Part shown: positions 17,349 through 35,178 of the stretch, one piece after another | How the letters are laid out: every line of letters begins with the position of its first letter | How positions within the stretch are numbered: position 1 is the first letter of the stretch | Origin: an uncultured archaeon | GTDB taxonomy: Archaea; Asgardarchaeota; Thorarchaeia; Thorarchaeales; Thorarchaeaceae | Direction of reading: 5' to 3' | NCBI GenBank assembly: GCA_964458565.1 | Contig: CAYWJO010000005.1 | Coordinates: 20,375 to 84,374, forward strand | DNA: 64,000 bases | Made by a program: the position numbers and the translations under genes | The notes under the pieces: model-generated | The model's input: only the letters and a program-made list of their open reading frames with translations | Told to the model about the DNA's origin: nothing | Databases searched by the model: none

Positions 17349-18194
17349 GTGAGTGACATGAGATATCGTGAATTCCTTAGGAAGAGTTTGGAATCAAATA
17401 TTTCTGATACTTCATTGTTACCTTCTGGTTTTCATTTCGTAGGACATGTTGCTCTATTACATCTAAAAAAAGAAATCATGAAGTATGCCGAAATTATTGG
17501 TCAGCTAACATTGGAATTTGATAAGCGAATCAAATCGGTTGCTGTAAGGTCTGGACCTACAATAGGAGTAAAACGACTACCTAGTTATTCATTAGTTGCT
17601 GGAGATAAAAAGACTGAAACGATTCATATTGAAAACGGTATTCGATTCAAGCTTGATCCGTTGAATGTGACATTTTCTGGGGGAAATAAAGAAGAAAGAA
17701 TACGGATGCCTTCCAGAATAAAGACGGGTGAAGTAATAGTAGATATGTTTGCTTGTGTTGGTCAGTTTGCACTTCATTTGGCAAAGAAGAAGACTGCAAA
17801 AGTATATGCAATTGAACTCAATTCTATTGCCTATGACTATCTATTAGAAAATATTACTTTGAATCATTTGGATAATTATGTACAGGCAATCAATGGTGAT
17901 TGTAGAGAAGTATACCCACGTGCTATTGCAGATAGAATTGTGATGGGATATCTTCATGATACTTTGTCGTATTTTCCTTATGCATTGAAGTCATTGAAGA
18001 AGTGTGGGGGTTTTGTGCATATGCATCTTGCAGGATTAGAGAAAGATATACCTAATTATTGTAATACAATTAATACTATTTGCAATTCTGAAGGATTCAA
18101 TGTGATTTCTGATGAAACAAGAAAGATAAAGCACTACTCGCCGCGCATTGATCATTTCGTATTTGATATTGAAGTTCAGTCAGCCATTCAATAA
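17349..18194 (+). CDS. Trm5/Taw2-family SAM-dependent tRNA transferase
   Basis: HIENGIRFKLD, FSGGNKEER, VDMFACVGQF and ADRIVMGY. Confidence 0.88.
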   Translation: MSDMRYREFLRKSLESNISDTSLLPSGFHFVGHVALLHLKKEIMKYAEIIGQLTLEFDKRIKSVAVRSGPTIGVKRLPSYSLVAGDKKTETIHIENGIRFKLDPLNVTFSGGNKEERIRMPSRIKTGEVIVDMFACVGQFALHLAKKKTAKVYAIELNSIAYDYLLENITLNHLDNYVQAINGDCREVYPRAIADRIVMGYLHDTLSYFPYALKSLKKCGGFVHMHLAGLEKDIPNYCNTINTICNSEGFNVISDETRKIKHYSPRIDHFVFDIEVQSAIQ

Positions 18195-18277
18195 TGTGCT
18201 GAAACAAAACCATTTTATCTCAGACTTCATGGATTGTATCGAATCACTTCCCGAGTCGGATTATGTGAGGAATCAAT

Positions 18278-18664
18278 ATGGGTTTCAGAGGCCTATCACC
18301 AAAACAGATTTCACGAATGATGAAAAAGATGGGAATAGAACAGGATGACCTCGAAGGTGTGACAGAGGTTGTCATTCGTTTCAAGGATAAAGAGTGGCTG
18401 ATTGGAAATCCACAAGTGGGAGTGATTAAACAATCGGGTAGCGAGTCGTATCAAATTTCAGGTAGCAAGATTGAAAGAGCATTAACGACTAGTGGGGAAT
18501 CAGTAGTTATTGAAGAAACTCAACCTGCAGTAATCGAGATACCAATAGAAGATGCAGCTCTTGTCGCAAGTCAAGCTGGGGTTGATATTGAAACTGCAAA
18601 AGAAGCTTTGAGGGAAACTGAAGGTGATTTGGCAGCAGCTATTCTAAAACTGAAACGTAGTTAA
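18278..18664 (+). CDS. nac: Nascent polypeptide-associated complex protein
   Basis: MMKKMGI...V.EVVI...SYQISG NAC domain plus UBA-like GDLAAAILKL. Confidence 0.93.
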   Translation: MGFRGLSPKQISRMMKKMGIEQDDLEGVTEVVIRFKDKEWLIGNPQVGVIKQSGSESYQISGSKIERALTTSGESVVIEETQPAVIEIPIEDAALVASQAGVDIETAKEALRETEGDLAAAILKLKRS

Positions 18665-18671
18665 GTACCAA

Positions 18672-19298
18672 TTATGATGTAATTCGATCTCGAATCATCT
18701 TAGTTCTGAAGAAATCTTCGCGTTCTCTTTCCTCAAGAGCTAGCTTGACAAAATGAGCTGTTGCATCAAGACGAGGAATAACAACAGTTTCGAGCGCTGA
18801 AACGCGACGCTTTGTACGCTCTATTTCTAATGCTAGACGCTTCACTGTAGATTCTATCTCTGCAAGTTTAACTACAGCTTTCAATGCTTCTTGGAATTTA
18901 CTTGACATGAGATCTAAACGAGCACTTGAATCTGTTAGAGAATAGGGAAGATCTGGAGTGGTTTGATTCACTGACAATACAGGGACTCTTACTCCCATCA
19001 TAGTTCTTGTTGATATACTCAACTCGGATTTCATGTTGCTAGCATTGGCAAATTCAACAACTCTTGATGGACCCATAATCATTTTTGCTTGAGTAAGAGC
19101 TGTGAATGCAGCAGAAAGTGCTGATTCAACAGTCTGTCTTGTTTCCTTGATTTCTGCTATTGCATTGAAGAATTCCATAATTAGAGAGTCCCTTTTTTCT
19201 TTCAGAAGATTGTGACCTCGTTCGGCAAGTCGCATTCTATTCTTTAATCGTAGAAGTTCCATACGTGTAGTTTTGGTTCCAGGAAGAATCTTACTCAT
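18672..19298 (-). CDS. atpD: A/V-type ATP synthase subunit D
   Basis: TRMELLRLK...GHNLLKEKRD...TKRRVSALE...LEEREREDFFR. Confidence 0.95.
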   Translation of the reverse strand: MSKILPGTKTTRMELLRLKNRMRLAERGHNLLKEKRDSLIMEFFNAIAEIKETRQTVESALSAAFTALTQAKMIMGPSRVVEFANASNMKSELSISTRTMMGVRVPVLSVNQTTPDLPYSLTDSSARLDLMSSKFQEALKAVVKLAEIESTVKRLALEIERTKRRVSALETVVIPRLDATAHFVKLALEEREREDFFRTKMIRDRITS

Positions 19299-19383
19299 TT
19301 GTCATCACCTACAGCATTGATGATATCCATGGGGACCAACCCAGAGAGTATATCATTCGCACTAAAACTGTTGTGTTCCGAGC

Positions 19384-19698
19384 TCATGTAAATGTAAGAG
19401 CGAGTGCACAGATTACAACACCTAGCGTGCAGATGAACAACCACTCTCTCAAATAGGTTCGTACTCTCTTGGGGCGTTCTTGGATTCGGCCAGTAGTTAT
19501 GAGAGTCATAATGAATAAGAAAAGAAAAGCAAAGGGAAGTGCTATTGTTCTACTCACCACTATAGAAGCATCCACTATCAAAATGATACCCATCAGTCCT
19601 CCGAATATGAGAAAACAGAGAATCATAATTGCATTCAAAACATGTCGTATTCTATCAACATTCATTTCATTCACCATAGTGGGAGATGTAGTAATCAT
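19384..19698 (-). CDS. Small hypothetical membrane protein (3 TM)
   Basis: Three hydrophobic segments. Confidence 0.6.
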   Translation of the reverse strand: MITTSPTMVNEMNVDRIRHVLNAIMILCFLIFGGLMGIILIVDASIVVSRTIALPFAFLFLFIMTLITTGRIQERPKRVRTYLREWLFICTLGVVICALALTFT

Positions 19699-19872
19699 CT
19701 AGTCGAAGGTTCAGCCATTATATTCTCTTGAAAAAGCTTGTGTCTCAAAAATAGATGATTAGGTTCTATGACTTCATGTCACCATACGATTTAAAACGGG
19801 ATAATAGTCTAATAATTGTATTACAAGAACTACTTGTGATACGATAAAGTAACGTGTGGCTGTGATGATTTC

Positions 19873-20847
19873 ATGACAATTGCCATTCATGAGAGTGCAT
19901 TGATACGTCATTTCAATACTAGAAAAGAAACGCTGCGAGCTTGGGAAGAAAAAATCGGTGCGAGGTTTTCTCCATTCAGAGGATATAAAATGCCGGATAG
20001 TCGTTTGTATTGCGAACATCCTGATTTTCTTGATAGTATTGTTGACCTAATAATAACAAATGAGAGACATATTTTCCTTAGGGGTCCAGTAGGATCTGGA
20101 AAGAGTACTTTGATGCTTCTTGCACTTCGGGACCTGCCTACATTAGCTGATCGGCGAGGAAATAAGTTTGTTACAGGATATGTTGGGATGACCGGTCTCT
20201 ATGAGAAACAAATGTCTGCTGCCATTGCAGATTCCTTGAGAATCAAATATCGTCGATCATGGGAGTCTAGTCAAATTATAGAAGCTGTTGCACAAGAAAG
20301 TCTTAGGAGATACGTCGAAGAGAAGAGTCGTACGGCACTCTTCATCGAAGATGTTGCTGACAATCAAGAAGCTGCATTTCACAAACTACGGTATCTTGCT
20401 GATTTACCAACTGAAGAAATGATTGATAGTCATGGTCGAATATTGGATGAACCAATAGTCACACTGATTATGAGTGGAACTACAATGTATTGGAACGCTA
20501 TGCTTAGTTTTCTACCACAGATTGCAGATCGAACTGAGCCTCTGGATGTACCGCCCTTTGACCTTTTGAAAGCAAAGGAGTTCATAGGACGCCGACTCTA
20601 TTATGCGCGTGGTAAAATTGATAGTTTCGACTCTGATAATTATGAATTGTATCCATTTCATGACGAAGCTGTAGAGATAATCAATAATTCTGCAGAAGGG
20701 AATCCACGAGACATTCGAATGTTGGCAAGAGGATGCCAACAAGTTGCAGCTGAGAACTTCAAGAGATCTGGATTTCCAGAAATTACAGCAGAAATATCTA
20801 AACTGGTTGCTGATGCTTATGCCACATTACTGAAGGAGGTTAAATAA
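19873..20847 (+). CDS. AAA+ ATPase (ExeA/TniB/initiator-like, not ParA)
   Basis: N-terminal SPF, Walker A GPVGSGKS, Walker B ALFIED, sensor-1 IMSGT, IADR and GNPRDI lid. Confidence 0.8.
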   Translation: MTIAIHESALIRHFNTRKETLRAWEEKIGARFSPFRGYKMPDSRLYCEHPDFLDSIVDLIITNERHIFLRGPVGSGKSTLMLLALRDLPTLADRRGNKFVTGYVGMTGLYEKQMSAAIADSLRIKYRRSWESSQIIEAVAQESLRRYVEEKSRTALFIEDVADNQEAAFHKLRYLADLPTEEMIDSHGRILDEPIVTLIMSGTTMYWNAMLSFLPQIADRTEPLDVPPFDLLKAKEFIGRRLYYARGKIDSFDSDNYELYPFHDEAVEIINNSAEGNPRDIRMLARGCQQVAAENFKRSGFPEITAEISKLVADAYATLLKEVK

Positions 20848-20848
20848 T

Positions 20849-21148
20849 ATGAGCTTGCTAGGGAAATATAGACGCGAAGAAAGAGATAGGGATGAAGAAG
20901 AGGAGGGTACGACATCTCAAAGTGACTCACAGCCTAAACCAGAACGTACTCAAACCCTTGTTGCAGTTCCTAATAAAGAACGAAAGAGTCCAATAATGAG
21001 TTTCTCAGTTGCTTCAGATCTAAGACTGTGTTTGCAGGCAATTAGAAACAAACGTGCAATTAATCTAAGCATGTGGGTTGAAAGAGTCTTGCGAGAGGCA
21101 GTTATACAGGAATTTCCAAATATTGCAGAAGATCTTCTTGAATCCTAG
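20849..21148 (+). CDS. Ribbon-helix-helix DNA-binding protein with a disordered N-terminal tail
   Basis: Charged, flexible N-terminus, then IMSFSV strand, SDLRLCLQAI helix and INLSMWVERVLRE helix; starts 1 nt after the ATPase stop with a GGAGG RBS. Confidence 0.7.
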   Translation: MSLLGKYRREERDRDEEEEGTTSQSDSQPKPERTQTLVAVPNKERKSPIMSFSVASDLRLCLQAIRNKRAINLSMWVERVLREAVIQEFPNIAEDLLES

Positions 21149-21163
21149 GATGTAATACATTTA

Positions 21164-22567
21164 TTACAAATCAGAGTTTCCTCTGGATTGAAGAAATTCG
21201 GAATATTCTGCAGTTTTAGACATACAGAGAGCTGCAATATACGGGTCATCATAGCAAGGGATACGGTTCATCTCCAGCAGATCCTTACCAGGTTTACCTA
21301 CTTCACCAGCAAGCCATACTCCTACAACTGGTTTATTGACTCCTGAAGTACGAATACCTTCAAGTGTCCCAGCTGCATGTTCAGTCTGGGTCATTCCAGC
21401 AAACGTTGGAACTCCACATATTACTAACAACATGTCAACATTTTCGTCCTTGAGAAGGAGTTCTGTAGCAATTTTATATTCCCTACGACCACCACTGGCA
21501 ACTACATCGATTGGGTTTTCGACAGCAGCCATTGAAGGTAATAGTTGTCGAAGTTCTTTAGTTGTGTTTTCATTTAGTCGAGATATTTTTAGATCAAAAT
21601 CGGAGGCAGCATCCGCAGCAAGTACGCCAGCACCACCTGTATTACTTATAATACCAATATTACGACCACTCGGTAAAGGTTGATAATCGAATAGCTTACA
21701 TATTTCAAGTAGTGAATCAAATGTAGGAGCTGTAACACATCTAGTTTGTTGAATAACTCCATTGAACACCTCAATAGAACCTGCGAGAGATCCGGTATGT
21801 GATTTCGTTGCGCGACTACCAGCACTACTTCGACCTCCCTTTAGAACCACAACTGGTTTTCTTGATGTAGCATTCTTTAGTGATTTGAAGAATGCTCGTC
21901 CGTGATCGACACCCTCAACATAAACTGCAATGACAGAGGATTTTTCATCAATGGCGAAGTAGTCAATAATATCGGAAAAGTTTACATCCACTGCGTTTCC
22001 AATACTAGCGAACTTGCTTATGCCAATACGTTTTGCTCGAGTGTTATAGATAGTCATACCACCAAGAGCGCCGCTCTGGGAAACAAATGCGATGTTTCCA
22101 CGTTCAGGCATCATAGTAAATGTTCCATTGAATAAGCGGCTGTTTGAAACCCCTACACAATTAGGTCCAATTATTCGTACTCCATACTCTTTAGCTATTT
22201 GCAATAATTGAGCTTCAAGCTGAGATCCGTGTACCCCAGTTTCACTAAATCCTCCGGATACGATGATTGCATTTCTTGCTCCAGCTTTGTGAATTTGGGG
22301 AATCAAATCTATACAATATTTAGCTGCTACTGCTACTATTACGAGATCAACAGAAGAAGGTAGCTCCTGTAGGCTCGGATACGCTTTCACACCCATTACT
22401 TGGTCTCTGTTCCGTGTGATTGGATAGACTTCAATCTCAGATGTAAGTAGATTCATCAAAATTGAATTGCCGAGTTTTCTATAGTCTGAAGATGCACCAA
22501 CTAAGGCAATACTTTTCGGATTGAAGAAGAGGTCGATAGTTGCCTCATCATTCAATGAGTTAGACAT
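21164..22567 (-). CDS. acdA: ADP-forming acetate/acyl-CoA ligase alpha subunit
   Basis: PKSIALVGAS, RIIGPNCVG, SQSGALG, SHTGSLAG and NPIDV. Confidence 0.9.
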   Translation of the reverse strand: MSNSLNDEATIDLFFNPKSIALVGASSDYRKLGNSILMNLLTSEIEVYPITRNRDQVMGVKAYPSLQELPSSVDLVIVAVAAKYCIDLIPQIHKAGARNAIIVSGGFSETGVHGSQLEAQLLQIAKEYGVRIIGPNCVGVSNSRLFNGTFTMMPERGNIAFVSQSGALGGMTIYNTRAKRIGISKFASIGNAVDVNFSDIIDYFAIDEKSSVIAVYVEGVDHGRAFFKSLKNATSRKPVVVLKGGRSSAGSRATKSHTGSLAGSIEVFNGVIQQTRCVTAPTFDSLLEICKLFDYQPLPSGRNIGIISNTGGAGVLAADAASDFDLKISRLNENTTKELRQLLPSMAAVENPIDVVASGGRREYKIATELLLKDENVDMLLVICGVPTFAGMTQTEHAAGTLEGIRTSGVNKPVVGVWLAGEVGKPGKDLLEMNRIPCYDDPYIAALCMSKTAEYSEFLQSRGNSDL

Positions 22568-22624
22568 GATTGAATGGCAAATCTATACGAATTTATGTCT
22601 ACCTAGATATGCATGTTACTTGTA

Positions 22625-23881
22625 TTATTTGTAATACATTTCGGTGTTACTCTTCTTGGCTAATTTGCGATATAATTTCTTCAGTTGTGCATAGTTTGTG
22701 CAATTGAGTTGAAGATAATCTTTGATGGCATATTCGAATTGCGGATTTCGTTTATGGATATTTTCGATAGCTTCTATTGCTGCATTTACAATTTCTTTGT
22801 TTCTTTTATTACAAATGAGCTCGATGAGTGTTTCAACAGATGCTATATGATAAAAATTACCAAGCGCGGATATAGATGGTGTGACTATTCGAGGATTGTC
22901 TGTATTAATTATGGATTGGAGTAAAATAATAGATTTCAGTGATCTTATTGAAACCAGATTATCAATATGTTTGACAAGTAATCTGAATTTCTCTGCTGTT
23001 TGGTCTGCATTGTATTCATCGAGTATGCATTCTAATAATATACTGAAGTAAGAAACCGCATGTCGGCTGCCGAGGTCACGAAGATTAGAGATATCACCAG
23101 CAATCATGGATGTTAACAGATTATGATATAACGGATGATGAGGATTCTTGATCTTGTGTATGGCTTTGGCTGATTTGGATATAATTTGATTCTTTATTGT
23201 ATCTGATACGGGTATTACAGATAATACCATCTCCATTTCCTGTTCATCAATCAATAATTTAGTCAAGTCTAGTTTTGATAATGCATGCAATCCGTATTCG
23301 GAATGCCATAAGCCTTCAACTGATACTATTTGATTATCTAAAAGAACAGCTGCTCCAATTAATTCTTCTTTACGGATATGTTCTATTTGAATATGCATTT
23401 CTTTTGGAATTATCAATGAGCTTTCAGTGACATCTAAAAAAAATGTATCATGATTAGTAATTTGATCACGAAGAACTGGTAAGATATATTCTAGTAAAGA
23501 GTTCGCTGAATCCGTAAATGATGTCTTAGATTCAAGGAATCCAAGAATATCTTGGGTGGAAATATTAGTTGGTTCGAGTCCCTTACAACCTAGAACTTCA
23601 AATAATACTTCGCGATATTTGATAGGTTCGATTTTTTTCTTTGGAGCATCTATTCCAATTGGGTATGAATAATGAGCATCTAATGATTTCTTAAGATAAT
23701 TTACAGTTGAGTTCCAACCGACTGTTTGGTCAAGTGTCACTAATATATCTTGAAAATCTTCACATCTCCGGTCGCCAATTGATTGAACGATATCAAGAAT
23801 TATATCTCTATCAGTTGCTTCTTGAATTCTCTGTTTGAGAGCTGTAAGAATCCTTGATTTTCCATTATTTTTATCATCCAC
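22625..23881 (-). CDS. Hypothetical protein with C-terminal HEAT-like repeats
   Basis: PSISALGNF...VETLIELI...AAIEAIENI. Confidence 0.6.
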   Translation of the reverse strand: MDDKNNGKSRILTALKQRIQEATDRDIILDIVQSIGDRRCEDFQDILVTLDQTVGWNSTVNYLKKSLDAHYSYPIGIDAPKKKIEPIKYREVLFEVLGCKGLEPTNISTQDILGFLESKTSFTDSANSLLEYILPVLRDQITNHDTFFLDVTESSLIIPKEMHIQIEHIRKEELIGAAVLLDNQIVSVEGLWHSEYGLHALSKLDLTKLLIDEQEMEMVLSVIPVSDTIKNQIISKSAKAIHKIKNPHHPLYHNLLTSMIAGDISNLRDLGSRHAVSYFSILLECILDEYNADQTAEKFRLLVKHIDNLVSIRSLKSIILLQSIINTDNPRIVTPSISALGNFYHIASVETLIELICNKRNKEIVNAAIEAIENIHKRNPQFEYAIKDYLQLNCTNYAQLKKLYRKLAKKSNTEMYYK

Positions 23882-24060
23882 TTTATGACACCCAACTAGA
23901 TACTGAATGAGTAGATTGGATTTTAATGAGTCTATTTACAATCTATGATACTATTACTTGTAATACAATTATTAGTATCTTACCTAATAATGTTTCAATT
24001 ACTCAAAGAAACTTCGTTCTAAGAATAGAACTATGTATAGATTGTGTCTTAGTAAATATG

Positions 24061-24243
24061 AGTATGTTGTGTCATACTGGACCCGTCTGGAATCGAAGTT
24101 CGTTATACGGAGAACTTCAAATGTCCACATTGGCATCTCTATCTCCTCGAAAAAACCTCAAAGATGATCGAATGTAGGTACGCAGACGGGAAGGATTCCT
24201 ATGGATTCCTCAAAGTTGGCGCAACATGCTCGAGCCGTTTTTT
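24061..24243. ncRNA. Candidate structured non-coding element
   Basis: CCCGTCTG/CAGACGGG closes arms GAAGTTC/GAACTTC and ACATT-CATCT/AGATG-AATGT; further hairpins and a T-run follow. Confidence 0.4.
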
Positions 24244-24284
24244 CTTATTCATCCCTATTATCCCCTTTATCTTCTGATTTTAGT

Positions 24285-24818
24285 CTAAGATTTTTGTTTT
24301 GCAATCTCTCCCTTGAGAACTAATGGAGAATCAAGCTCTTCAAGAAGAGACAGGATGAGACGCTCTGCTGATTGGTAGCTCTCAACATCCTCACTAGTTA
24401 ATTCTATCTTTCCAGATAGTATCTCTCTAATTCTACGATACCCACCTATTCTTGAAGCAATCTCCTCAAATGGACGAAAAACAGCTAAATCAAAGAGACC
24501 TAGGTATGCAAGTAGAAGAAGTGTGTAAATTGATTTGGTAATGTTGGTACGAGCTTGTTTCAATGTTCGATTAAAGGAGCCCCTGGATACTCCTTTCTTT
24601 TTGGTTCCTTTGTGACCACGAAGAGAAGCTTTTGTTTCATATGCAATATGCTCATCTACACCATCCTCTAGTACTAGGTCAATAAGTAGTGTTTCAATTT
24701 GTGTTTCAGTCAGTGTTGATCTTCCAAGTAAAATTTGAAGTATCGGTTCTTTCATAACCCTACGAGCATTGATGATTAATTTCTCCATACCATCTTTCTT
24801 CCTTTTATTTGTAGACAT
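24285..24818 (-). CDS. Conserved archaeal hypothetical protein, possibly HTH DNA-binding
   Basis: STLTETQIETL...VSRGSFNRTLKQAR..I.KSIYTLLLLAYLG. Confidence 0.65.
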   Translation of the reverse strand: MSTNKRKKDGMEKLIINARRVMKEPILQILLGRSTLTETQIETLLIDLVLEDGVDEHIAYETKASLRGHKGTKKKGVSRGSFNRTLKQARTNITKSIYTLLLLAYLGLFDLAVFRPFEEIASRIGGYRRIREILSGKIELTSEDVESYQSAERLILSLLEELDSPLVLKGEIAKQKS

Positions 24819-25014
24819 TCATTCTTTCATCCTTGAAATGTGAGTTCTTGTGGAGTGTAAGTAATATAGCCTCATATTCCTTCTTTTTACCTTTCAGGAA
24901 TTATGAAGTTTTTTTGAAACACTACTAATCTGTGTTCTTCTACGGATACAAAAGTGTATACGTAAAGACTATTATGTGCTTCGTGAAAAATAGATAGTAA
25001 TATTTGTAATACAA

Positions 25015-25458
25015 TCAAGCATTAAAAGTATCATTCAAGCTACTTCTGATTGGAAGTTTCCATTCTGAACCAGGAGGTACACTAACAAAGCCTAATATTA
25101 GATTACCACGGATCTCATCATATTTGAATATACCAAAGATGAATCGTTCATTTTTTGCAGCCCATTCAATTCTACCAAGAGCAAGATAGTGATTGAAAAC
25201 ATCTCTACACTGTTTTCGCACTGTGGCAAACAAATTTCGAAATCGTTTCCTTTGTGATGGTCGTATATCCCAACGTTCCAGAATGAATCGATTTGCCAGA
25301 CTATTGCTAGAAATCAATATTGATCTACGTCTCTCATTTGGTGCGTTTATTGCCCTTTCAAGAGTCTGTCTTAAACAATTAGGTACCGTAGCTAAGACGG
25401 AAGGACTTGTCTTTGGTTCATAAACTGTTGACCCTGATAATACGTCGAATCGTCTCAA
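25015..25458 (-). CDS. Hypothetical basic protein
   Basis: 147-aa Arg-rich ORF filling the gap between neighbours. Confidence 0.55.
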   Translation of the reverse strand: MRRFDVLSGSTVYEPKTSPSVLATVPNCLRQTLERAINAPNERRRSILISSNSLANRFILERWDIRPSQRKRFRNLFATVRKQCRDVFNHYLALGRIEWAAKNERFIFGIFKYDEIRGNLILGFVSVPPGSEWKLPIRSSLNDTFNA

Positions 25459-25615
25459 TTCCCATCGATATTCTGTATGGATGGACCTTTAAGAGGTACT
25501 ATAAATGTTTGATAACCATTGTATTACATATATTATTTCTAATAATGGAATAGTTGTACTACTTCACTGCATTAATATCGGAAACAAGTCCCTTCATGGA
25601 AAGGAGAATTACTCT

Positions 25616-27952
25616 TTGATCACCAAGGCAACGATTCATATTACTGGAATTGTACAAGGAGTAGGATTCAGACCTTTCATCTATCGTGAAGCAATATTAT
25701 TGAAGCTAACAGGTTATGTATTAAATCTCGGTGATGCGGGTGTTAGAATAGTAGTTGAAGGGGAGAAATCAAGAATTAATAAGTTAATTGAGATAATAAA
25801 AGCTAAACCCCCATCCATTTCACGCATAGATTCGGTTTCTATAAGCTGGGATGAATCAGAAGGCAAATTTGATACATTCCTCATCTCTAAGTCTTCACCT
25901 ATCAGAGAGAATGGAGCTGTCACTGAGATTCCACCGGATATTGCAATTTGTGATGATTGTGTTGAAGATTTGTTTTCTCCAAAATCTCGTTGGTATTTGT
26001 ATCCATTCACCTCATGTGCAGCATGTGGACCTAGGTTCTCTACAATAACAGATTTACCTTATGACAGACCAAATACGACAATGACAGATTTTCCTCTTTG
26101 TAATATATGTAATACAGGTTATACAAATCCTTTTGATAGAAGATATCATGCACAGACAACTGCATGTTTTACATGTGGACCTGAATACAAGTTAATGAAT
26201 AATGATGGAGAAATTATAGAAACAGAGGATGTTGTACTTACATCAACAAAACTTCTCAAAGAGAGGTCTATAATTGCAGTTCAAGGAATTGCTGGAACTC
26301 ATCTTGTAACAATTACTTCACAACCGGATCCAATTTTAGAGCTCCGTAGAAGAAAGAGACGAGACAAACGACCATTCGCAGTTATGGTCAAAGACCTATT
26401 AGCAACCTATCAAATTTCAAAACCAACAGATTTTGAAACACAGCTAATTACTTCATGGCGAAGACCAATAGTCTTGATTAGAAAGAAGTATAATTCGAAT
26501 GCAAATTTCGAACATGAGTTGATATCTCCGGGTTTGGATACCATAGGAGTCATGTTACCCTATGCACCTATCCATCATCTGTTTTTCAATCATCTTGATG
26601 AAATTGCACTATTGATGACAAGTGCTAATCCAACTGGGTTACCGATGTTTATAGAACCAAAAACCATAATATCAAAACTACAATCAGTTGCAGATTACTT
26701 TCTCATTCATAATAGAAGGATACATCAAAGAGCTGATGATTCAGTATTAAAAATCGTACATGAAGACAATCCCGTTTTTCTTCGTAGGGCACGTGGATAT
26801 GTTCCCGATCCACTGAAAGTCAAAAGTCCTAATGACAAAATTACAATTCTGGGTCTTGGACCTGAAGAGAAAGTTACAGGTGCCATTTTGAAATCGGATT
26901 ATATTTATCAAACTCAACACATTGGAGATGCTGATTGTTTAGAAACTGCTGAATTTCTCTTGGACGCTTCTATTCATCTGATGGATTTAGTGGGAGTATC
27001 CAATCTTGATGCGATTGCTTGTGATTTGCATCCTGAATTTATTACAACAAAACTTGGTAGAAAAATAGCAGATGATAGAGATATTCCTCTGATTAGGGTT
27101 CAGCATCATCATGCACATCTTGCATCTTTAATGGGTGAACATAGAATTGATAATAATACTAGTATTACTTGTATTACAGTCGATGGTTTTGGATATGGTG
27201 ATGATGGTACTGCATGGGGAGGTGAAATTCTAACAGGGAATCTATCTGAATACACAAAGAAAGGCGGCATAAAACCTGTGATACTTCCAGGTGGAGATAT
27301 GACAGCTAGATATGCTTCTAGGTCTCTCTTTGGACTGCTTAGATCTGGGATGACTACTTCGGATATTCATAAGATATTGAAAGGACATAATGTTGCACTT
27401 AGACAGCCAGCTAGTATTGAGAATCTATTATTTCTAGAGGAATCAATTAAGAAAGGAATCAATACCATGACAAGCTCTAGCGCGGGCAGGTTTCTTGATG
27501 CAGTATCTTTAGCTCTTGGAGTATGTTCAGAAAATTCCTATGATGGAGAATGTCCAATGAAGCTTGAGTCAATTGCAAAAGAAAGCGATTCAAACGTGAA
27601 GATTGAATATAGTATTGAAAGGAATTTGAGTTTCATTGATACTTCTAAATTCTTGAGAGAATTATTAGAATTAAAGAATAATGGAATGCCGAAGAAATAT
27701 ATCGCATATATTGCACAATGGGAACTTGGATCTGCATTAGCAGAAATTGCATGTGATGTATCTATTAGCGAAGGCATAGAGTATGTTGGTATTTCTGGAG
27801 GAGTTGCTTTGAATCGGATAATTACTTCTGCTGTAATAAAAAAGGTATTAGCTTACAATCTCACACCATTAATACATAGAAATATTCCTCCGGGAGATGG
27901 AGGTATTTCTTCAGGACAGGTTTTGGTAGCATCTGCCAAACTATTAGAATAG
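25616..27952 (+). CDS. hypF: Carbamoyltransferase HypF
   Basis: GIVQGVGFRPF, CxxC Zn fingers, RRARGYVP, QHHHAH and PPGDGGISSGQ; TTG start after GGAG. Confidence 0.96.
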   Translation: MITKATIHITGIVQGVGFRPFIYREAILLKLTGYVLNLGDAGVRIVVEGEKSRINKLIEIIKAKPPSISRIDSVSISWDESEGKFDTFLISKSSPIRENGAVTEIPPDIAICDDCVEDLFSPKSRWYLYPFTSCAACGPRFSTITDLPYDRPNTTMTDFPLCNICNTGYTNPFDRRYHAQTTACFTCGPEYKLMNNDGEIIETEDVVLTSTKLLKERSIIAVQGIAGTHLVTITSQPDPILELRRRKRRDKRPFAVMVKDLLATYQISKPTDFETQLITSWRRPIVLIRKKYNSNANFEHELISPGLDTIGVMLPYAPIHHLFFNHLDEIALLMTSANPTGLPMFIEPKTIISKLQSVADYFLIHNRRIHQRADDSVLKIVHEDNPVFLRRARGYVPDPLKVKSPNDKITILGLGPEEKVTGAILKSDYIYQTQHIGDADCLETAEFLLDASIHLMDLVGVSNLDAIACDLHPEFITTKLGRKIADDRDIPLIRVQHHHAHLASLMGEHRIDNNTSITCITVDGFGYGDDGTAWGGEILTGNLSEYTKKGGIKPVILPGGDMTARYASRSLFGLLRSGMTTSDIHKILKGHNVALRQPASIENLLFLEESIKKGINTMTSSSAGRFLDAVSLALGVCSENSYDGECPMKLESIAKESDSNVKIEYSIERNLSFIDTSKFLRELLELKNNGMPKKYIAYIAQWELGSALAEIACDVSISEGIEYVGISGGVALNRIITSAVIKKVLAYNLTPLIHRNIPPGDGGISSGQVLVASAKLLE

Positions 27953-27977
27953 CAATTGTAATATATGTAATACAATA

Positions 27978-28592
27978 TCATGTAAGTAGTTTTTGGATAG
28001 CTTGGAATCCAAGCTCAACTGCAGTGATATTGATTGTTTCAAATTTGCTAGAGAAAGACATACGAACAGCAGCTAATACTGATTCTTTCTTGATTGGGGT
28101 GAGGTTAGTACCTAATATTGCTCCTAGCATGACCATATTCATTGAACGAGAACTTCCGGCTTCCTTAGCAAGCTCCATTGCATCAATTTCCAGAATCTTA
28201 TCTGTGAATCTCCTAATTTGAGATATGATTTCTCCATGATCAGGATATTCTGTTTGGCCCATGGATACAGCTACAGGGTATTGAATATGTGAACTCATGA
28301 CAACATATCCATCATTACTAACTGCATGAATTTCCCTCAGAGTTTCAAGGGGTTCGAATCCAACAATGAGATTAGCTGTTCCCGAATCAATTATTGGTCC
28401 ATACACATTTTCACCAATACGTACTGTACATACAACATGACCGCCTCTTTGAGCCATCCCATGAATCTCACCTACTCGTACGTTTAAATTGTCCGCTAGT
28501 GCAGCCTTTGCCAAAATTTCTGCAAGTGTTAGTACTCCCTGACCACCAACACCAGCAATGAGAATATCGCTATTATTTGTATTACAATTCAT
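27978..28592 (-). CDS. iorB: Indolepyruvate:ferredoxin oxidoreductase beta subunit
   Basis: AGVGGQG, EIHGMAQRGGHV and NMVMLGA; GGAGG RBS before the ATG at 28592. Confidence 0.93.
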   Translation of the reverse strand: MNCNTNNSDILIAGVGGQGVLTLAEILAKAALADNLNVRVGEIHGMAQRGGHVVCTVRIGENVYGPIIDSGTANLIVGFEPLETLREIHAVSNDGYVVMSSHIQYPVAVSMGQTEYPDHGEIISQIRRFTDKILEIDAMELAKEAGSSRSMNMVMLGAILGTNLTPIKKESVLAAVRMSFSSKFETINITAVELGFQAIQKLLT

Positions 28593-28594
28593 AT

Positions 28595-30484
28595 TTATTC
28601 CTCCTGTCTTATTGCACCTTGTGGACATACTGATACACATGTACCACATAGATTACACAGAGTTTCGTCAATTACTGCTTTTTCTGTTAAAGAATCAAAA
28701 TACATAGCTGGACAAGAGAGACGATTCAGGCAGCGTTTACATGAGTTACATGTTTCAGAATCCACATAATATCGTGGAGGGAATTCGCCAGTACGACGCC
28801 TATCGGCAGCTGTCAGTAGAGCACAAGGTGCTTTTGAAACCATGACAGCAGGTTCATTATTTTCGCGGACCCACTTTACCATCTTGCGAACTTCAGCGAC
28901 TAAGTCAGCCATTAGTTCAAAAGGATTCATCTCTATAACATATTTGACCCCTAATCCCTTGCATACTTCTACAATATCAAGAGGCTCTACTTGTTCTTGC
29001 ATTCCAGTGATTCCAGTGCCAGGATGTGGTTGATGTCCAGTCATTGCAGTAGTTCTATTATCTAGGACAACTAATGAAACTGGATGTTTGTTGTATACTG
29101 CGTTTACTATTCCAGGGAGTGCGGATGCGAAGAAGGTACTATCACCAATTGAGGCTACTATATCTTGATTTGTTACACGTGCAAGACCACATGCTGTAGT
29201 AATTGATGATCCCATGTCAAAGAGGATATCTGCAGTTTCAAGAGGTGGTGCAATGCTGAGAGTATAACAACCAATATCTGAGGGATAAATTGCTTTTCCT
29301 CTTGTTGCAGTCTTGATTGCATAATAGGTTGCTCTATGGGGACAACCTGGACATAGAAGTGGTGGTCGAGGAGGAAGTTCTGGAATTTGTTTGAATCTAT
29401 CATCTATATCCTTCCAATTAATAATTGTATTACAATTAATAATATTACAGATAGCTTCAATTACGATTCGTGGACTGTACTCGAAAGTTCGTGGAAATAG
29501 TCCTTGTTCCTTTCCAAATATCTCAATGGACAGACCATTTAATTGTGCAAGTCGCCGAGTGTGTGTTTCTAAGAAAGGTTCGAGCTCTTCGACAATAATG
29601 ATCTTATTGTGGTTTTTCATGAAATTAAGAATCATTTTCTCAGGTATTGGATGAGTAAGACCAAGCTTTAGGATACTTGCATCTAGTTCTAAACAAGATA
29701 ATGCTTCACGAACATAGTTGAAGGATACACCACTGGTAATGATTCCAAGATTACCCTTACCTTCGATGAAATTCATTGATGAAGTTTCTGAAAATTCTCT
29801 TACTTTTTCAATCTGTTTCAAAAGAAGAGGATGACGTTTACGTGCGACAGATGGAATGGGTACAAAACGGAATGGATCTTTTTCAAAGTGTACTGTTTCT
29901 GGGCGATTTCTAATAGGACCAAGTTCGACGGCAGCTCGGGTATGATTGACTCGAGTTGTTGTTCTAAACAAGACTGGAAGTTCAAATTTCTCCGATATCT
30001 CGTATGCTTCTAGAAGTAATGATTTTGCTTCAGCAGGATCTGCAGGTTCTATCATTGGCATATTTCCCATCAGAGCATAATAACGACTATCGTTTTCGTT
30101 TTGTGAGCTCCACATACTTGGATCATCAGCTACGACAATTACCATGCCGGCTCTGACTCCAACATATGACAGTGAGAAGAAAGGATCTGCGGCAACATTG
30201 AGACCAGGTCCTTTACATACCATCATTGATCTAGCACCAGCAACTGCTACAGCTCCTGCTACTTCTAGAGCAACCTTCTCGTTTGTACTAAATTCGAAAT
30301 AGAAATTGGGAATGTGTGGTGCCATAAATGTCAGATTGTTTCCAATTTCACTACTTGGAGTACCTGGATAAAGAGCTACTAGTCTAACTCCAGCTTCCAA
30401 TACGCCTCGTGCGATAGCTTCATTGGCAAGAAGGAGAATGTTCTTTCCAACAGAGTCCTCGAGCAATTCTTTAGGTTTGGTCAA
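28595..30484 (-). CDS. iorA: Indolepyruvate:ferredoxin oxidoreductase alpha subunit
   Basis: YPGTPSSE, NEKVALE, RPPLLCPGCPHR, DIGCY, TAMTGHQ and a C-terminal ferredoxin domain. Confidence 0.95.
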   Translation of the reverse strand: MTKPKELLEDSVGKNILLLANEAIARGVLEAGVRLVALYPGTPSSEIGNNLTFMAPHIPNFYFEFSTNEKVALEVAGAVAVAGARSMMVCKGPGLNVAADPFFSLSYVGVRAGMVIVVADDPSMWSSQNENDSRYYALMGNMPMIEPADPAEAKSLLLEAYEISEKFELPVLFRTTTRVNHTRAAVELGPIRNRPETVHFEKDPFRFVPIPSVARKRHPLLLKQIEKVREFSETSSMNFIEGKGNLGIITSGVSFNYVREALSCLELDASILKLGLTHPIPEKMILNFMKNHNKIIIVEELEPFLETHTRRLAQLNGLSIEIFGKEQGLFPRTFEYSPRIVIEAICNIINCNTIINWKDIDDRFKQIPELPPRPPLLCPGCPHRATYYAIKTATRGKAIYPSDIGCYTLSIAPPLETADILFDMGSSITTACGLARVTNQDIVASIGDSTFFASALPGIVNAVYNKHPVSLVVLDNRTTAMTGHQPHPGTGITGMQEQVEPLDIVEVCKGLGVKYVIEMNPFELMADLVAEVRKMVKWVRENNEPAVMVSKAPCALLTAADRRRTGEFPPRYYVDSETCNSCKRCLNRLSCPAMYFDSLTEKAVIDETLCNLCGTCVSVCPQGAIRQEE

Positions 30485-30595
30485 TCCTGAACCTCCGTAG
30501 ACCTTTAGTCTACATCTTGTGTTTTGACAATCCATAATAGGTATCAGTCTTACGGTAGGAGCTAAGAGCACTTTGTAATACTCGTATTATATTTT

Positions 30596-30983
30596 GAACA
30601 CGTGTTCCAAGTTTTTCTTGGACAAGACCCCCATATTTCCACTCGAATATTAATGGGAAGACAGAATATAAAATAACCAAAAGTATATATAATGTTTTTA
30701 GCAGCCTATATTTATCTACATTTTTATCTACTATATATGATCGCCAAATCTTCTACATTTTCATCTATGTTCCAATGGAAATTAAGGGGTGTCACAGTTT
30801 TCAAGTACTACTAACCTTTATTTCCTCTGTTTCTTATGGAACATATGGAAACGATTGTTAACCTCCTATATAGGGACTTTGCAACAAACTTAATCCATCT
30901 TTCATAGCAGATAATGAATTAGAACACGTGTTCTAGAACCCCCTTATTTCCTATGGAAGTATATATTGGAACACATGTTCCAA
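30596..30983. other. Putative replication origin (ORB cluster with AT-rich segments)
   Basis: ORB-like elements: 30628-30647(-) TTCGAGTGGAAATATGGGGG, 30769-30789(+) GTTCCAATGGAAATTAAGGGG and 30939-30958(-) TTCCATAGGAAATAAGGGGG. Confidence 0.75.
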
Positions 30984-30985
30984 AT

Positions 30986-34740: not shown

Positions 34741-35178
34741 TTATTCACATCTACCTATTCTCACATCTAAATAAGTGTGAGTATGTGAATTACTAATACC
34801 TAGATAAGAACTACATAATGTGTCTGTAAGCCCTAGAGACACACCTAATCCATTTCACTTGTGATAAGCCGCATAGAACACTAATATCAAATTAATAAGG
34901 CCTATTAGAGCTCTAAATCAAAAAATAATACCTTTTTCCTTCTTTATCACTATTCACAAAATTATATGGTTTGTGAATAGCATGATACGCATATCATAAG
35001 TCTTTTTGCTTAGTTCCAATGGAAACGAAGGGGTGTCGCTATTCACATAGGCTAGCAAATCTATAGTATCTTCTTTCCCGTCAAAAAGCAGATTATAAAC
35101 TTCTTTTTAATAATCGATTCACAATTATGGCGCCATTCACTTCCTAAATATGTGAACTATTGTCAACAACGTGAATAG
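34741..35178. repeat. (CT)ATTCAC iteron-like repeats around a single ORB
   Basis: About 8-10 ATTCAC/GTGAAT copies, including a perfect 11-bp inverted pair at 34950-34960/34970-34980; ORB GTTCCAATGGAAACGAAGGGG at 35013-35033. Confidence 0.75.

Follow-up and report, generated by a model that had tools for sequence, protein, structure and literature searches.

A coupled AAA+ ATPase and small-protein gene pair with a palindrome array beside an origin recognition box cluster in Thorarchaeota: a candidate partition-type module

The analysis of 64,000 nucleotides of DNA from an uncultured archaeon of the Thorarchaeaceae (positions 20375-84374 of contig C5 of genome G000, CAYWJO010000005.1; hereafter the window) reveals a module in which a coupled gene pair, encoding an AAA+ ATPase and a small protein with a predicted ribbon-helix-helix (RHH)-like core, lies within an array of short palindromes that ends at a putative replication origin built of origin recognition boxes (ORBs). 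The layout is that of a partition cassette, with the nucleoside triphosphatase (NTPase) gene first, the gene of the tailed RHH-like protein second and the repeats adjoining the operon. By analogy with ParABS and SegAB, we favour the reading that the AAA+ protein, the RHH-like protein and the array would together segregate or organise the origin region, and give it a probability of roughly 45%. The assembly from which the window is taken comprises 3.73 Mb in 93 contigs, with a G+C content of 38%, and its proteins find their best matches in metagenome-assembled genomes of Thorarchaeota.

The AAA+ gene occupies positions 19873-20847 of the window on the plus strand (324 aa; stop codon TAA at 20845-20847) and the gene of the small protein follows on the same strand at 20849-21148 (99 aa), both as called open reading frames (ORFs). 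The spacer between the AAA+ stop and the ATG of the small gene is a single base, and a GGAGG stands 10 nt before that ATG. Scanning of the sequence places one palindromic site on each side of this pair. Upstream, the exact box TGTATTACA at 19817-19825, with 47 nt between its end and the AAA+ ATG, is accompanied on both sides by degenerate 9-bp boxes, the whole site spanning 19808-19834. Downstream, TGTAATACA at 21151-21159 begins 2 nt past the stop of the small gene, with TTTATTACA next to it in the same register at 21160-21168, so that this second site (21151-21168) sits between the small gene and a convergent acetyl-CoA synthetase-like gene. A preliminary description of this DNA had claimed a coupled two-gene operon with one palindrome on either side, and the spacings of 47 nt before the operon and 2 nt past its end bear this out.

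These two sites belong to a much longer array. Exact copies of TGTAWTACA number 15 in the window against 0.77 expected from shuffles, and the whole 3.73-Mb assembly contains 29, fewer than its base composition predicts. Twelve of these 29 fall within the 11.4 kb between 18060 and 29434, where the density of the rest of the genome would give 0.05 (Poisson P ~8e-25); they start at 18060, 19817, 21151, 22630, 23959, 25005, 25520, 26108, 27170, 27966, 28578 and 29426. Together with a one-mismatch box at 30574, they form an array at 18060-30582 that runs from ~2.5 kb 5' of the operon to the ORB origin ~10.8 kb 3' of the AAA+ start. Strictly intergenic sequence, only 9% of the region, accounts for five of the exact sites; two more overlap the opening or closing few codons of an ORF, and the other five are deep inside ORFs. 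The sites at 21151 and 27966 stand between convergent genes, where no promoter is expected. The genes flanked by boxes include those for a tRNA methyltransferase, NAC, V-ATPase D, an acetyl-CoA synthetase-like protein, HypF and a 2-oxoacid oxidoreductase. When 425 sites of related loci are combined in a logo, degenerate GTAwTAC boxes stand out at a distance of 9 bp on both sides of the exact box, and this register points to a functional unit of ~27 bp made up of three boxes.

Two of the boxes overlap the ends of coding sequences: the one at 22630-22638 spans the last four codons of a HEAT-repeat ORF (MYYK-stop), and the one at 25520-25528 provides codons 6-8 of the HypF ORF as called. Judging from the sequence, the DNA motif seems to shape the termini of both proteins, or the true HypF start may lie further downstream. 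No Rfam match was obtained in 16000-36500 at E-values up to 0.1, including the 400-bp gap at 24061-24243.

The right end of the array abuts a putative oriC at 30596-30985, composed of ORBs, an AT-rich tract and palindromes. ORBs with G-strings lie at 30628-30646 (minus strand), 30771-30789 (plus strand) and 30939-30957 (minus strand), inverted around an AT-rich tract at ~30660-30760, which is the arrangement of an archaeal oriC; a loose ORB pattern finds 38 matches in the assembly, and the only cluster among them is that at 30628-30957. Copies of a second palindrome, GAACAYRTGTTC, start at 30596, 30922, 30969 and 31290, in or beside the origin spacer and interleaved with the ORBs. The cumulative GC skew of the contig, whose polarity is the reverse of that expected in bacteria, reaches its maximum at ~31.6-33.6 kb of the window and falls to its minimum at the best Orc1/Cdc6 gene (C5:120478-121593, outside the window). 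These extremes could mean that two origins lie ~70 kb apart, or that the skew is set by gene orientation. The nearest bona fide Orc1/Cdc6 genes are found on the same contig, outside the window, 49 and 69 kb from the ORB origin. No mapped Asgard origin was found in the literature searched.

Two further features of the origin region may be recorded here. An isolated fourth canonical ORB, TCCAATGGAAACGAAGGGG, is present at 35015-35033 in a spacer 4 kb to the right of the ORB cluster. Moreover, 4 of the 17 genomic copies of GAACAYRTGTTC are at the origin, and the same palindrome occurs at or beside the ORB clusters of Jordarchaeia, of families f7 and f2 and of other Thorarchaeota genera; given this recurrence across lineages, it looks like a conserved Asgard origin element.

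The module is kept throughout the Thorarchaeota. Nearly all of the genomes compared here and below are metagenome-assembled, and their related loci are not independent samples. Of 43 genomes of the same family, 40 carry one copy of the AAA+ gene, at 76-85% identity, and no other protein of the region is as well conserved as its product (76-84%, its neighbours being at 28-83%). The small ORF is present and coupled to it in all 36 of the Thorarchaeota species loci, with a spacer of -1 to +2 nt, and the operon, the array and the ORB pair recur across these loci. In 34 of the 36 the 120 nt before the AAA+ start contain an exact box, and in all of them the GTAWTAC core, while a site within 60 nt after the small-gene stop is exact in 13 and retains the core in 28. 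The density of sites is 0.50 per kb from -2.5 to +10.9 kb of the AAA+ start, against 0.044 per kb further upstream, and in most of the loci that are long enough ORB matches, usually paired, are located ~10.5-10.95 kb downstream of that start. Within the family gene order is kept over ~15 kb, and sites recur in the same spacers from one genus to another.

At the scale of whole genomes, a closed Thorarchaeota chromosome of 2.58 Mb has eight exact sites, seven of them in one 13-kb stretch, and in genomes G075 and G128 the sites adjoining the operon amount to 8 of 19 and 14 of 22, respectively. Two genomes (G055 and G155) carry the GTAWTAC core only, in 16 and 10 copies within 20 kb. Four Asgard genomes without an AAA+ match showed no cluster, their scattered sites being at or below the control count, and no relatives were found in IMG/VR contigs or PLSDB plasmids. 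The preliminary description had proposed a trio of NTPase, adaptor and centromere; the anatomy of genes and repeats on which that proposal relied proves much stronger than was claimed, being kept in position across the 36 loci, with an array that is all but unique in every genome tested. What that description overlooked is the link of the entire module to an ORB-type origin across Asgard lineages and the fact that, by structural modelling, Orc1/Cdc6 proteins are the nearest relatives of the ATPase.

The catalytic motifs of the ATPase are all intact and are conserved in an alignment across five Asgard families, and its membership of the AAA+ superfamily is clear. They comprise Walker A (GPVGSGKST, residues 71-79), Walker B (LFIEDV, 156-161), sensor-1 (GT, 202-203), a candidate arginine finger (R220) and sensor-2 (GNPRDIR, 276-282), preceded by an ExeA-like SPF at 33-35. 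Walker A is an ordinary P-loop and not the deviant KGGxxK[ST] that marks ParA and SegA, and a Pfam scan gave no ParA-family match. The predicted model (pLDDT 88) has a five-stranded core with a helical lid, and its top fold matches are archaeal Orc1/Cdc6 proteins (1w5s_B, Z 18.7 over 262 residues; 1fnn_A, 18.2; 2v1u_A, 18.2; 2qby_B, 17.7), which as a group align at Z 17.7-18.7 over 254-268 residues with a sequence identity of 9-16%. Drosophila Cdc6, TnsC (7plh_A, Z 17.0), MuB (8xvb_A, Z 16.4) and eukaryotic Orc1 come next; Orc1/Cdc6, TnsC and MuB are all AAA+ proteins that bind DNA. No winged helix is present in the model, the protein ending with lid helices at residue 324, and the alignments of structure with Orc1/Cdc6 extend to about residue 281-300 of the ~368-396 in the targets, short of the winged helix of the latter. 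Two helices (111-121 and 132-149) with the basic loop RIKYRRSW (123-130) between them, placed between strands 98-104 and 152-159, lie in the region where initiators have their initiator-specific motif (ISM), an extra helix between strand 2 and strand 3, and may correspond to it.

Sequence searches with the same protein remain below family thresholds. The Orc1/Cdc6 profile TIGR02928, with a cut-off of 181.3 bits, reaches 13.2, TIGR03015, the best NCBIfam match, 22 bits against 324.5 (E = 9.4e-5), and AAA_22 24.0 bits against 27; AAA_16 and NB-ARC matches are likewise sub-threshold, every Pfam score lying under its curated cut-off. Some orthologues carry a precomputed PF13401 match, public annotations of orthologues read ExeA or hypothetical, and a sequence profile run against the PDB gave matches at the level of the P-loop only. 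Overall, the models indicate an ATPase like those of ORC/Cdc6, TnsC and MuB, without a DNA-recognition domain. The earlier assignment of the partner as an ExeA/TniB/initiator-type AAA+ lacking the ParA motif agrees with both the weak Pfam and NCBIfam matches and the fold matches.

The small protein is predicted to consist of a conserved basic N-terminal peptide (MSLLGKYRRE, residues 1-10), an acidic and polar linker (~12-47), an extended segment (IMSFSV, 49-54), two helices in RHH-like arrangement (54-69 and 73-88) and a short C-terminal helix. In the model, residues 19-36 have a pLDDT below 50, and the extended 49-53 and the two helices reach 80-90; a strand-helix-helix core is thus seen in a monomer model, in which the strand cannot pair. 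Across the 36 Thorarchaeota loci the protein measures 91-117 aa, with the N-terminus MS(L/V)L(G/K)KYR(K/R)(E/D) and the strand (V/M/I)SFS(I/V/F), and the N-terminal peptide is kept while the linker varies in length. Lys6 of the peptide is invariant in all aligned lineages and Tyr7-Arg8 in Thorarchaeota. Pfam returned no match for the protein of the window, and for orthologues it returned RHH_1 (E = 0.0017), Arc (0.038), CcdA (0.054) and RHH_3 (0.14), each in one orthologue; a profile search of the PDB gave a single, non-significant match, to Mnt (E = 1.2).

Structure comparison of the small protein points in the same direction with weak matches: Foldseek retrieved SegB (7dv2_A, root-mean-square deviation (rmsd) 1.8 over 40 columns, E = 3), and VIA-align retrieved SegB (7duv_A, Z 3.2, rmsd 2.0, 46 aligned) and omega (2bnw_A, Z 3.0, rmsd 2.3, 41 aligned), followed by PutA-RHH (2.7), CopA (2.6) and ParD2 (2.6). 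Language-model look-alikes in the Atlas were CopG, ParG and RHH_1 at 0.93-0.94, and an exhaustive search of representatives recovered five clusters, all of them apparent orthologues or fragments. These weak but convergent signals suggest an RHH-like core, so that the tail and core described earlier both appear in the predicted model, the tail directly and the RHH fold through matches that are weak and mutually consistent. A complex prediction of the two proteins (score 0.00, no controls) says nothing either way.

Beyond the Thorarchaeota, the AAA+ protein was followed at 66% identity into the sister family f2, at 42-44% into f27 (records labelled Heimdallarchaeota), at ~30% into Jordarchaeia/Freyarchaeota (f19) and f7, and at 22-26% into Odinarchaeia (f3), and in the loci read from all five the small gene lies directly 3' of it. 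In Jordarchaeia, f7, Odinarchaeia, f2 and Thorarchaeota genera, ORB clusters are ~0.9-9.5 kb away from the pair; Orc1/Cdc6 falls within the same few kb in Odinarchaeia, f7 and Jordarchaeia, and in Odinarchaeia and f7 so does the PolD small subunit (PolD-DP1). In a closed Jordarchaeia genome (G038) a different palindrome, TGATATCA, occurs in 61 copies, 10 of them, against 0.25 expected, in a 14.7-kb stretch that spans Orc1/Cdc6, the ORBs and the operon, with the array flanking the ORBs left and right; some of the GATATC boxes there repeat in a 13-bp tandem register. In f7, a few GATATC boxes are present, at the operon. The strand with which the small protein presumably reads the DNA varies with the box, [ST]x[ST] going with GTAWTAC in Thorarchaeota, f2 and f27 and NxNxR with GATATC in Jordarchaeia and f7; since these lineages are few and related, this co-variation is a lead and not a statistical result.

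A further protein travels with the pair. P0126 (24285-24818, minus strand; 177 aa, no Pfam family) is encoded inside the array and contains GVSRGSFNRTLKQARTN, and its homologue adjoins the AAA+ and small genes in Thorarchaeota, f2, f27, Jordarchaeia, f7 and Odinarchaeia. Among its look-alikes in the Atlas are Bathyarchaeota clusters, and also one cluster that has Sigma70_r4 in 14% of its members. P0126 may be a third component or an alternative binder of the boxes. The gene of the HypF-type carbamoyltransferase (25505-27952) also stays linked to the AAA+, RHH-like and P0126 genes in Thorarchaeota, f2, f27, Jordarchaeia and f7. Proteins of ~600 aa from Lokiarchaeia (L122-L124, in genomes G065, G113 and G195) were considered as members of the same system and set aside, having neither a small RHH-like gene nor an ORB cluster nearby. 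They are ExeA-like P-loop proteins with weak similarity to the lid region of the AAA+ and a synteny that is kept in the three genomes, and they form a different, uncharacterised family.

How the module might act in partition can be outlined from better-known systems. Dimers of the RHH-like protein would bind the boxes cooperatively, as MetJ or omega bind tandem short repeats, so that the operon would come under autoregulation and a large nucleoprotein domain would form next to the origin. The 9-bp palindromes in 9-bp tandem register and the co-variation of boxes with strand residues are indirect hints of such binding. The AAA+ protein would bind DNA non-specifically as an ATP-dependent oligomer or filament, and the N-terminal peptide of its partner, carried on the flexible linker, would contact it and control its ATPase activity, much as the tails of ParG, ParB and SegB do with ParA-type ATPases and the peptides of MuA and TnsB with MuB and TnsC. 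The effect would be that the origin region, once newly replicated, is segregated, positioned or organised. In its specific form, in which an ORC/Cdc6-MuB-TnsC-type AAA+ polymerising on DNA partitions the Asgard origin region and is steered by the N-terminal peptide of the RHH-like protein, the proposal is doubtful, and we put it forward tentatively.

Several observations weigh against a partition role. The boxes may be bound by P0126 or by Orc1/Cdc6 instead of the RHH-like protein, whose RHH matches are individually weak (best folds at Z 3.0-3.8, or E = 3 in Foldseek). To our knowledge, an AAA+ ATPase is not part of any described partition system. The closest structural relatives of this one are initiators, and oriC, Cdc6 and PolD-DP1 genes adjoin the module in other lineages; an initiator-like fold in a neighbourhood of origin genes fits a replication role equally well. 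ParA/MinD-like P-loop genes are present elsewhere in the genome and leave room for a conventional segregation ATPase, and an argument that the genome lacks such an ATPase was dropped once these ParA-like genes were found. About half of the sites are at gene boundaries, a placement that would be equally natural for a transcription factor. Finally, the co-occurrence of operon and array anticipated in the preliminary description holds for the most part, the exceptions being one f2 genome (G112), with only two exact sites in 20 kb, and the Odinarchaeia loci examined, where no palindrome array was recognised.

Given the tie to an ORB origin and the Orc1/Cdc6-like fold, a role in replication is a serious rival to partition. 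An ORC/Cdc6-like AAA+ minus its winged helix would be brought by the RHH-like adaptor to the oriC repeats, where the pair would serve as an origin accessory regulating Orc1/Cdc6 binding, MCM loading or firing, for example through licensing, sequestration or timing. We give this reading the weight that we do because of the fold, with matches to archaeal Orc1/Cdc6 and eukaryotic Cdc6 and Orc1 at Z 15-19, and because of the neighbourhood, the pair lying near ORB clusters in Thorarchaeota, f2, Jordarchaeia, f7 and Odinarchaeia, with Orc1/Cdc6 in the same few kb in Odinarchaeia, f7 and Jordarchaeia and the PolD small subunit there too in Odinarchaeia and f7. The Jordarchaeia array, which extends on both sides of the ORBs, is in keeping with it, as is the lack of an orc1/cdc6 gene adjoining the ORB origin of the present genome, where the nearest is 49 kb off. 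The Thorarchaeota boxes, however, are spread over 12-13 kb in and between unrelated housekeeping genes and are not concentrated at an unwinding element, full Orc1/Cdc6 proteins with winged helices are also encoded, TIGR02928 is far below its cut-off, and the order of the genes with their flanking sites is the design of a partition cassette. On balance we regard an accessory role at the origin as rather unlikely.

A second rival confines the module to local transcription control, with the RHH-like protein as an autorepressor that also regulates neighbouring genes through the boxes present in almost all intergenic spacers, and the AAA+ as a co-regulated or regulatory partner without a DNA-handling role. 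Most RHH proteins are repressors, a conserved box stands ~47 nt upstream of the operon, and 7 of the 12 sites are in spacers or at ORF ends though only 9% of the region is intergenic, the same spacers carrying sites in other genera. Regulation of this kind would sit poorly with the sites between convergent genes (21151 and 27966), the five deep inside ORFs, the functionally unrelated genes that are flanked, the confinement of the sites to one stretch of chromosome ending at the origin, and the coupling to the ATPase, which is kept across Asgard classes while the motif changes; we therefore consider it improbable. The last alternative, a remnant or domesticated mobile or defence module (with the ATPase as a TniB/TnsC-like target selector or as an NTPase of STAND/NB-ARC-like type, or with an RHH antitoxin and an ATPase partner), could draw on the weak NB-ARC, AAA_16 and AAA_22 matches, on TnsC and MuB among the top folds and on the RHH antitoxin look-alikes in the Atlas and in Pfam. 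Those Pfam scores are all under curated cut-offs, no transposase or terminal repeats are present, and the gene shows 76-92% identity, family-wide synteny and an origin linkage that extends across classes. Because the gene is single-copy, vertically inherited and without viral or plasmid relatives (no homologues in IMG/VR or PLSDB), this origin is given little weight and seems very improbable.

Should partition be the function, the AAA+ would represent a fourth class of partition NTPase besides ParA, actin and tubulin, sharing its ancestry with the replication initiator. Were the RHH tail to control the action of the ATPase on DNA, an initiator-type AAA+ would form the core of a partition-like machine, and origin recognition and segregation would be linked in one protein lineage. 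Even if replication control proves to be the role, an ORC-like ATPase whose DNA specificity is borne by an adaptor would bear on the origin of the multi-subunit ORC. Asgard archaea are the closest known archaeal relatives of eukaryotes, and for work on the organisation and segregation of their chromosomes this locus offers a candidate origin defined by sequence, a genome-unique field of repeats and two small, very conserved proteins suited to work in vitro. A full-text search of the literature found no description of the AAA+/RHH/array module, which is not proof of absence and accords with the earlier remark that the trio was not recognised as described.

Comparison with known systems places these features in context. 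A close archaeal parallel is SegAB of Sulfolobus/Saccharolobus, in which the segS site lies upstream of segAB, SegB is proposed to stimulate SegA, and the only full segS is 166 kb away from an origin (PMC12139799). The present module shares with it a chromosomal operon with the NTPase first and a small RHH-like protein second, a site just upstream of the operon and further chromosomal sites. It departs from SegAB in that SegA is a ParA-type ATPase with a deviant Walker motif, whereas the protein here is an AAA+ with an ordinary P-loop, in that no sequence homology to SegB was detected, and in that a single full segS far from an origin is replaced by 12-13 sites in an array abutting an ORB origin.

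The plasmid cassettes of type Ib and II offer a parallel for the small protein. In ParF-ParG of TP228 and delta-omega of pSM19035, a tailed RHH protein binds tandem repeats, autoregulates its operon and acts on the NTPase through its tail, and a small RHH-like protein with a flexible N-terminal tail is what the model predicts here. Those cassettes are plasmid-borne and have a ParA-family NTPase and one compact block of repeats, whereas the array described here is chromosomal, dispersed over 12 kb and linked to an origin. In bacterial ParABS the operon lies near oriC and palindromes are scattered over ~10-15 kb in and between genes and are otherwise rare; our module likewise has an origin-proximal operon with palindromes in and between genes that are rare elsewhere in the genome. 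ParB, however, is a helix-turn-helix CTPase clamp and ParA a Walker-type ATPase, and neither type is encoded in this operon.

For the ATPase itself, Orc1/Cdc6 provides the best fold match to the base and lid, and the AAA+ gene stands beside ORB elements; unlike Orc1/Cdc6, the AAA+ has no C-terminal winged helix and possesses an ExeA-like N-terminus, and bona fide Orc1/Cdc6 proteins are encoded elsewhere in the genome. With ExeA/GspA (COG3267, TIGR03015) it has in common the N-terminal xSPF motif before the P-loop and the public annotation, but its scores are below cut-off and neither a secretion-system context nor a peptidoglycan-binding domain accompanies it. MuB and TnsC lack a domain for sequence-specific DNA binding; with ATP they polymerise on DNA, and a peptide of a site-specific partner controls or removes them. 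Their fold is close to that of the AAA+, and it is their DNA-coating, peptide-controlled behaviour that we propose it may share. The present locus, by contrast, has neither a transposase nor element ends and shows no mobility, and the gene is single-copy and vertically inherited. Set beside all of these, the module looks like a partition-type trio of NTPase, adaptor and repeats, apparently undescribed, with a new class of NTPase and an array embedded at an origin.

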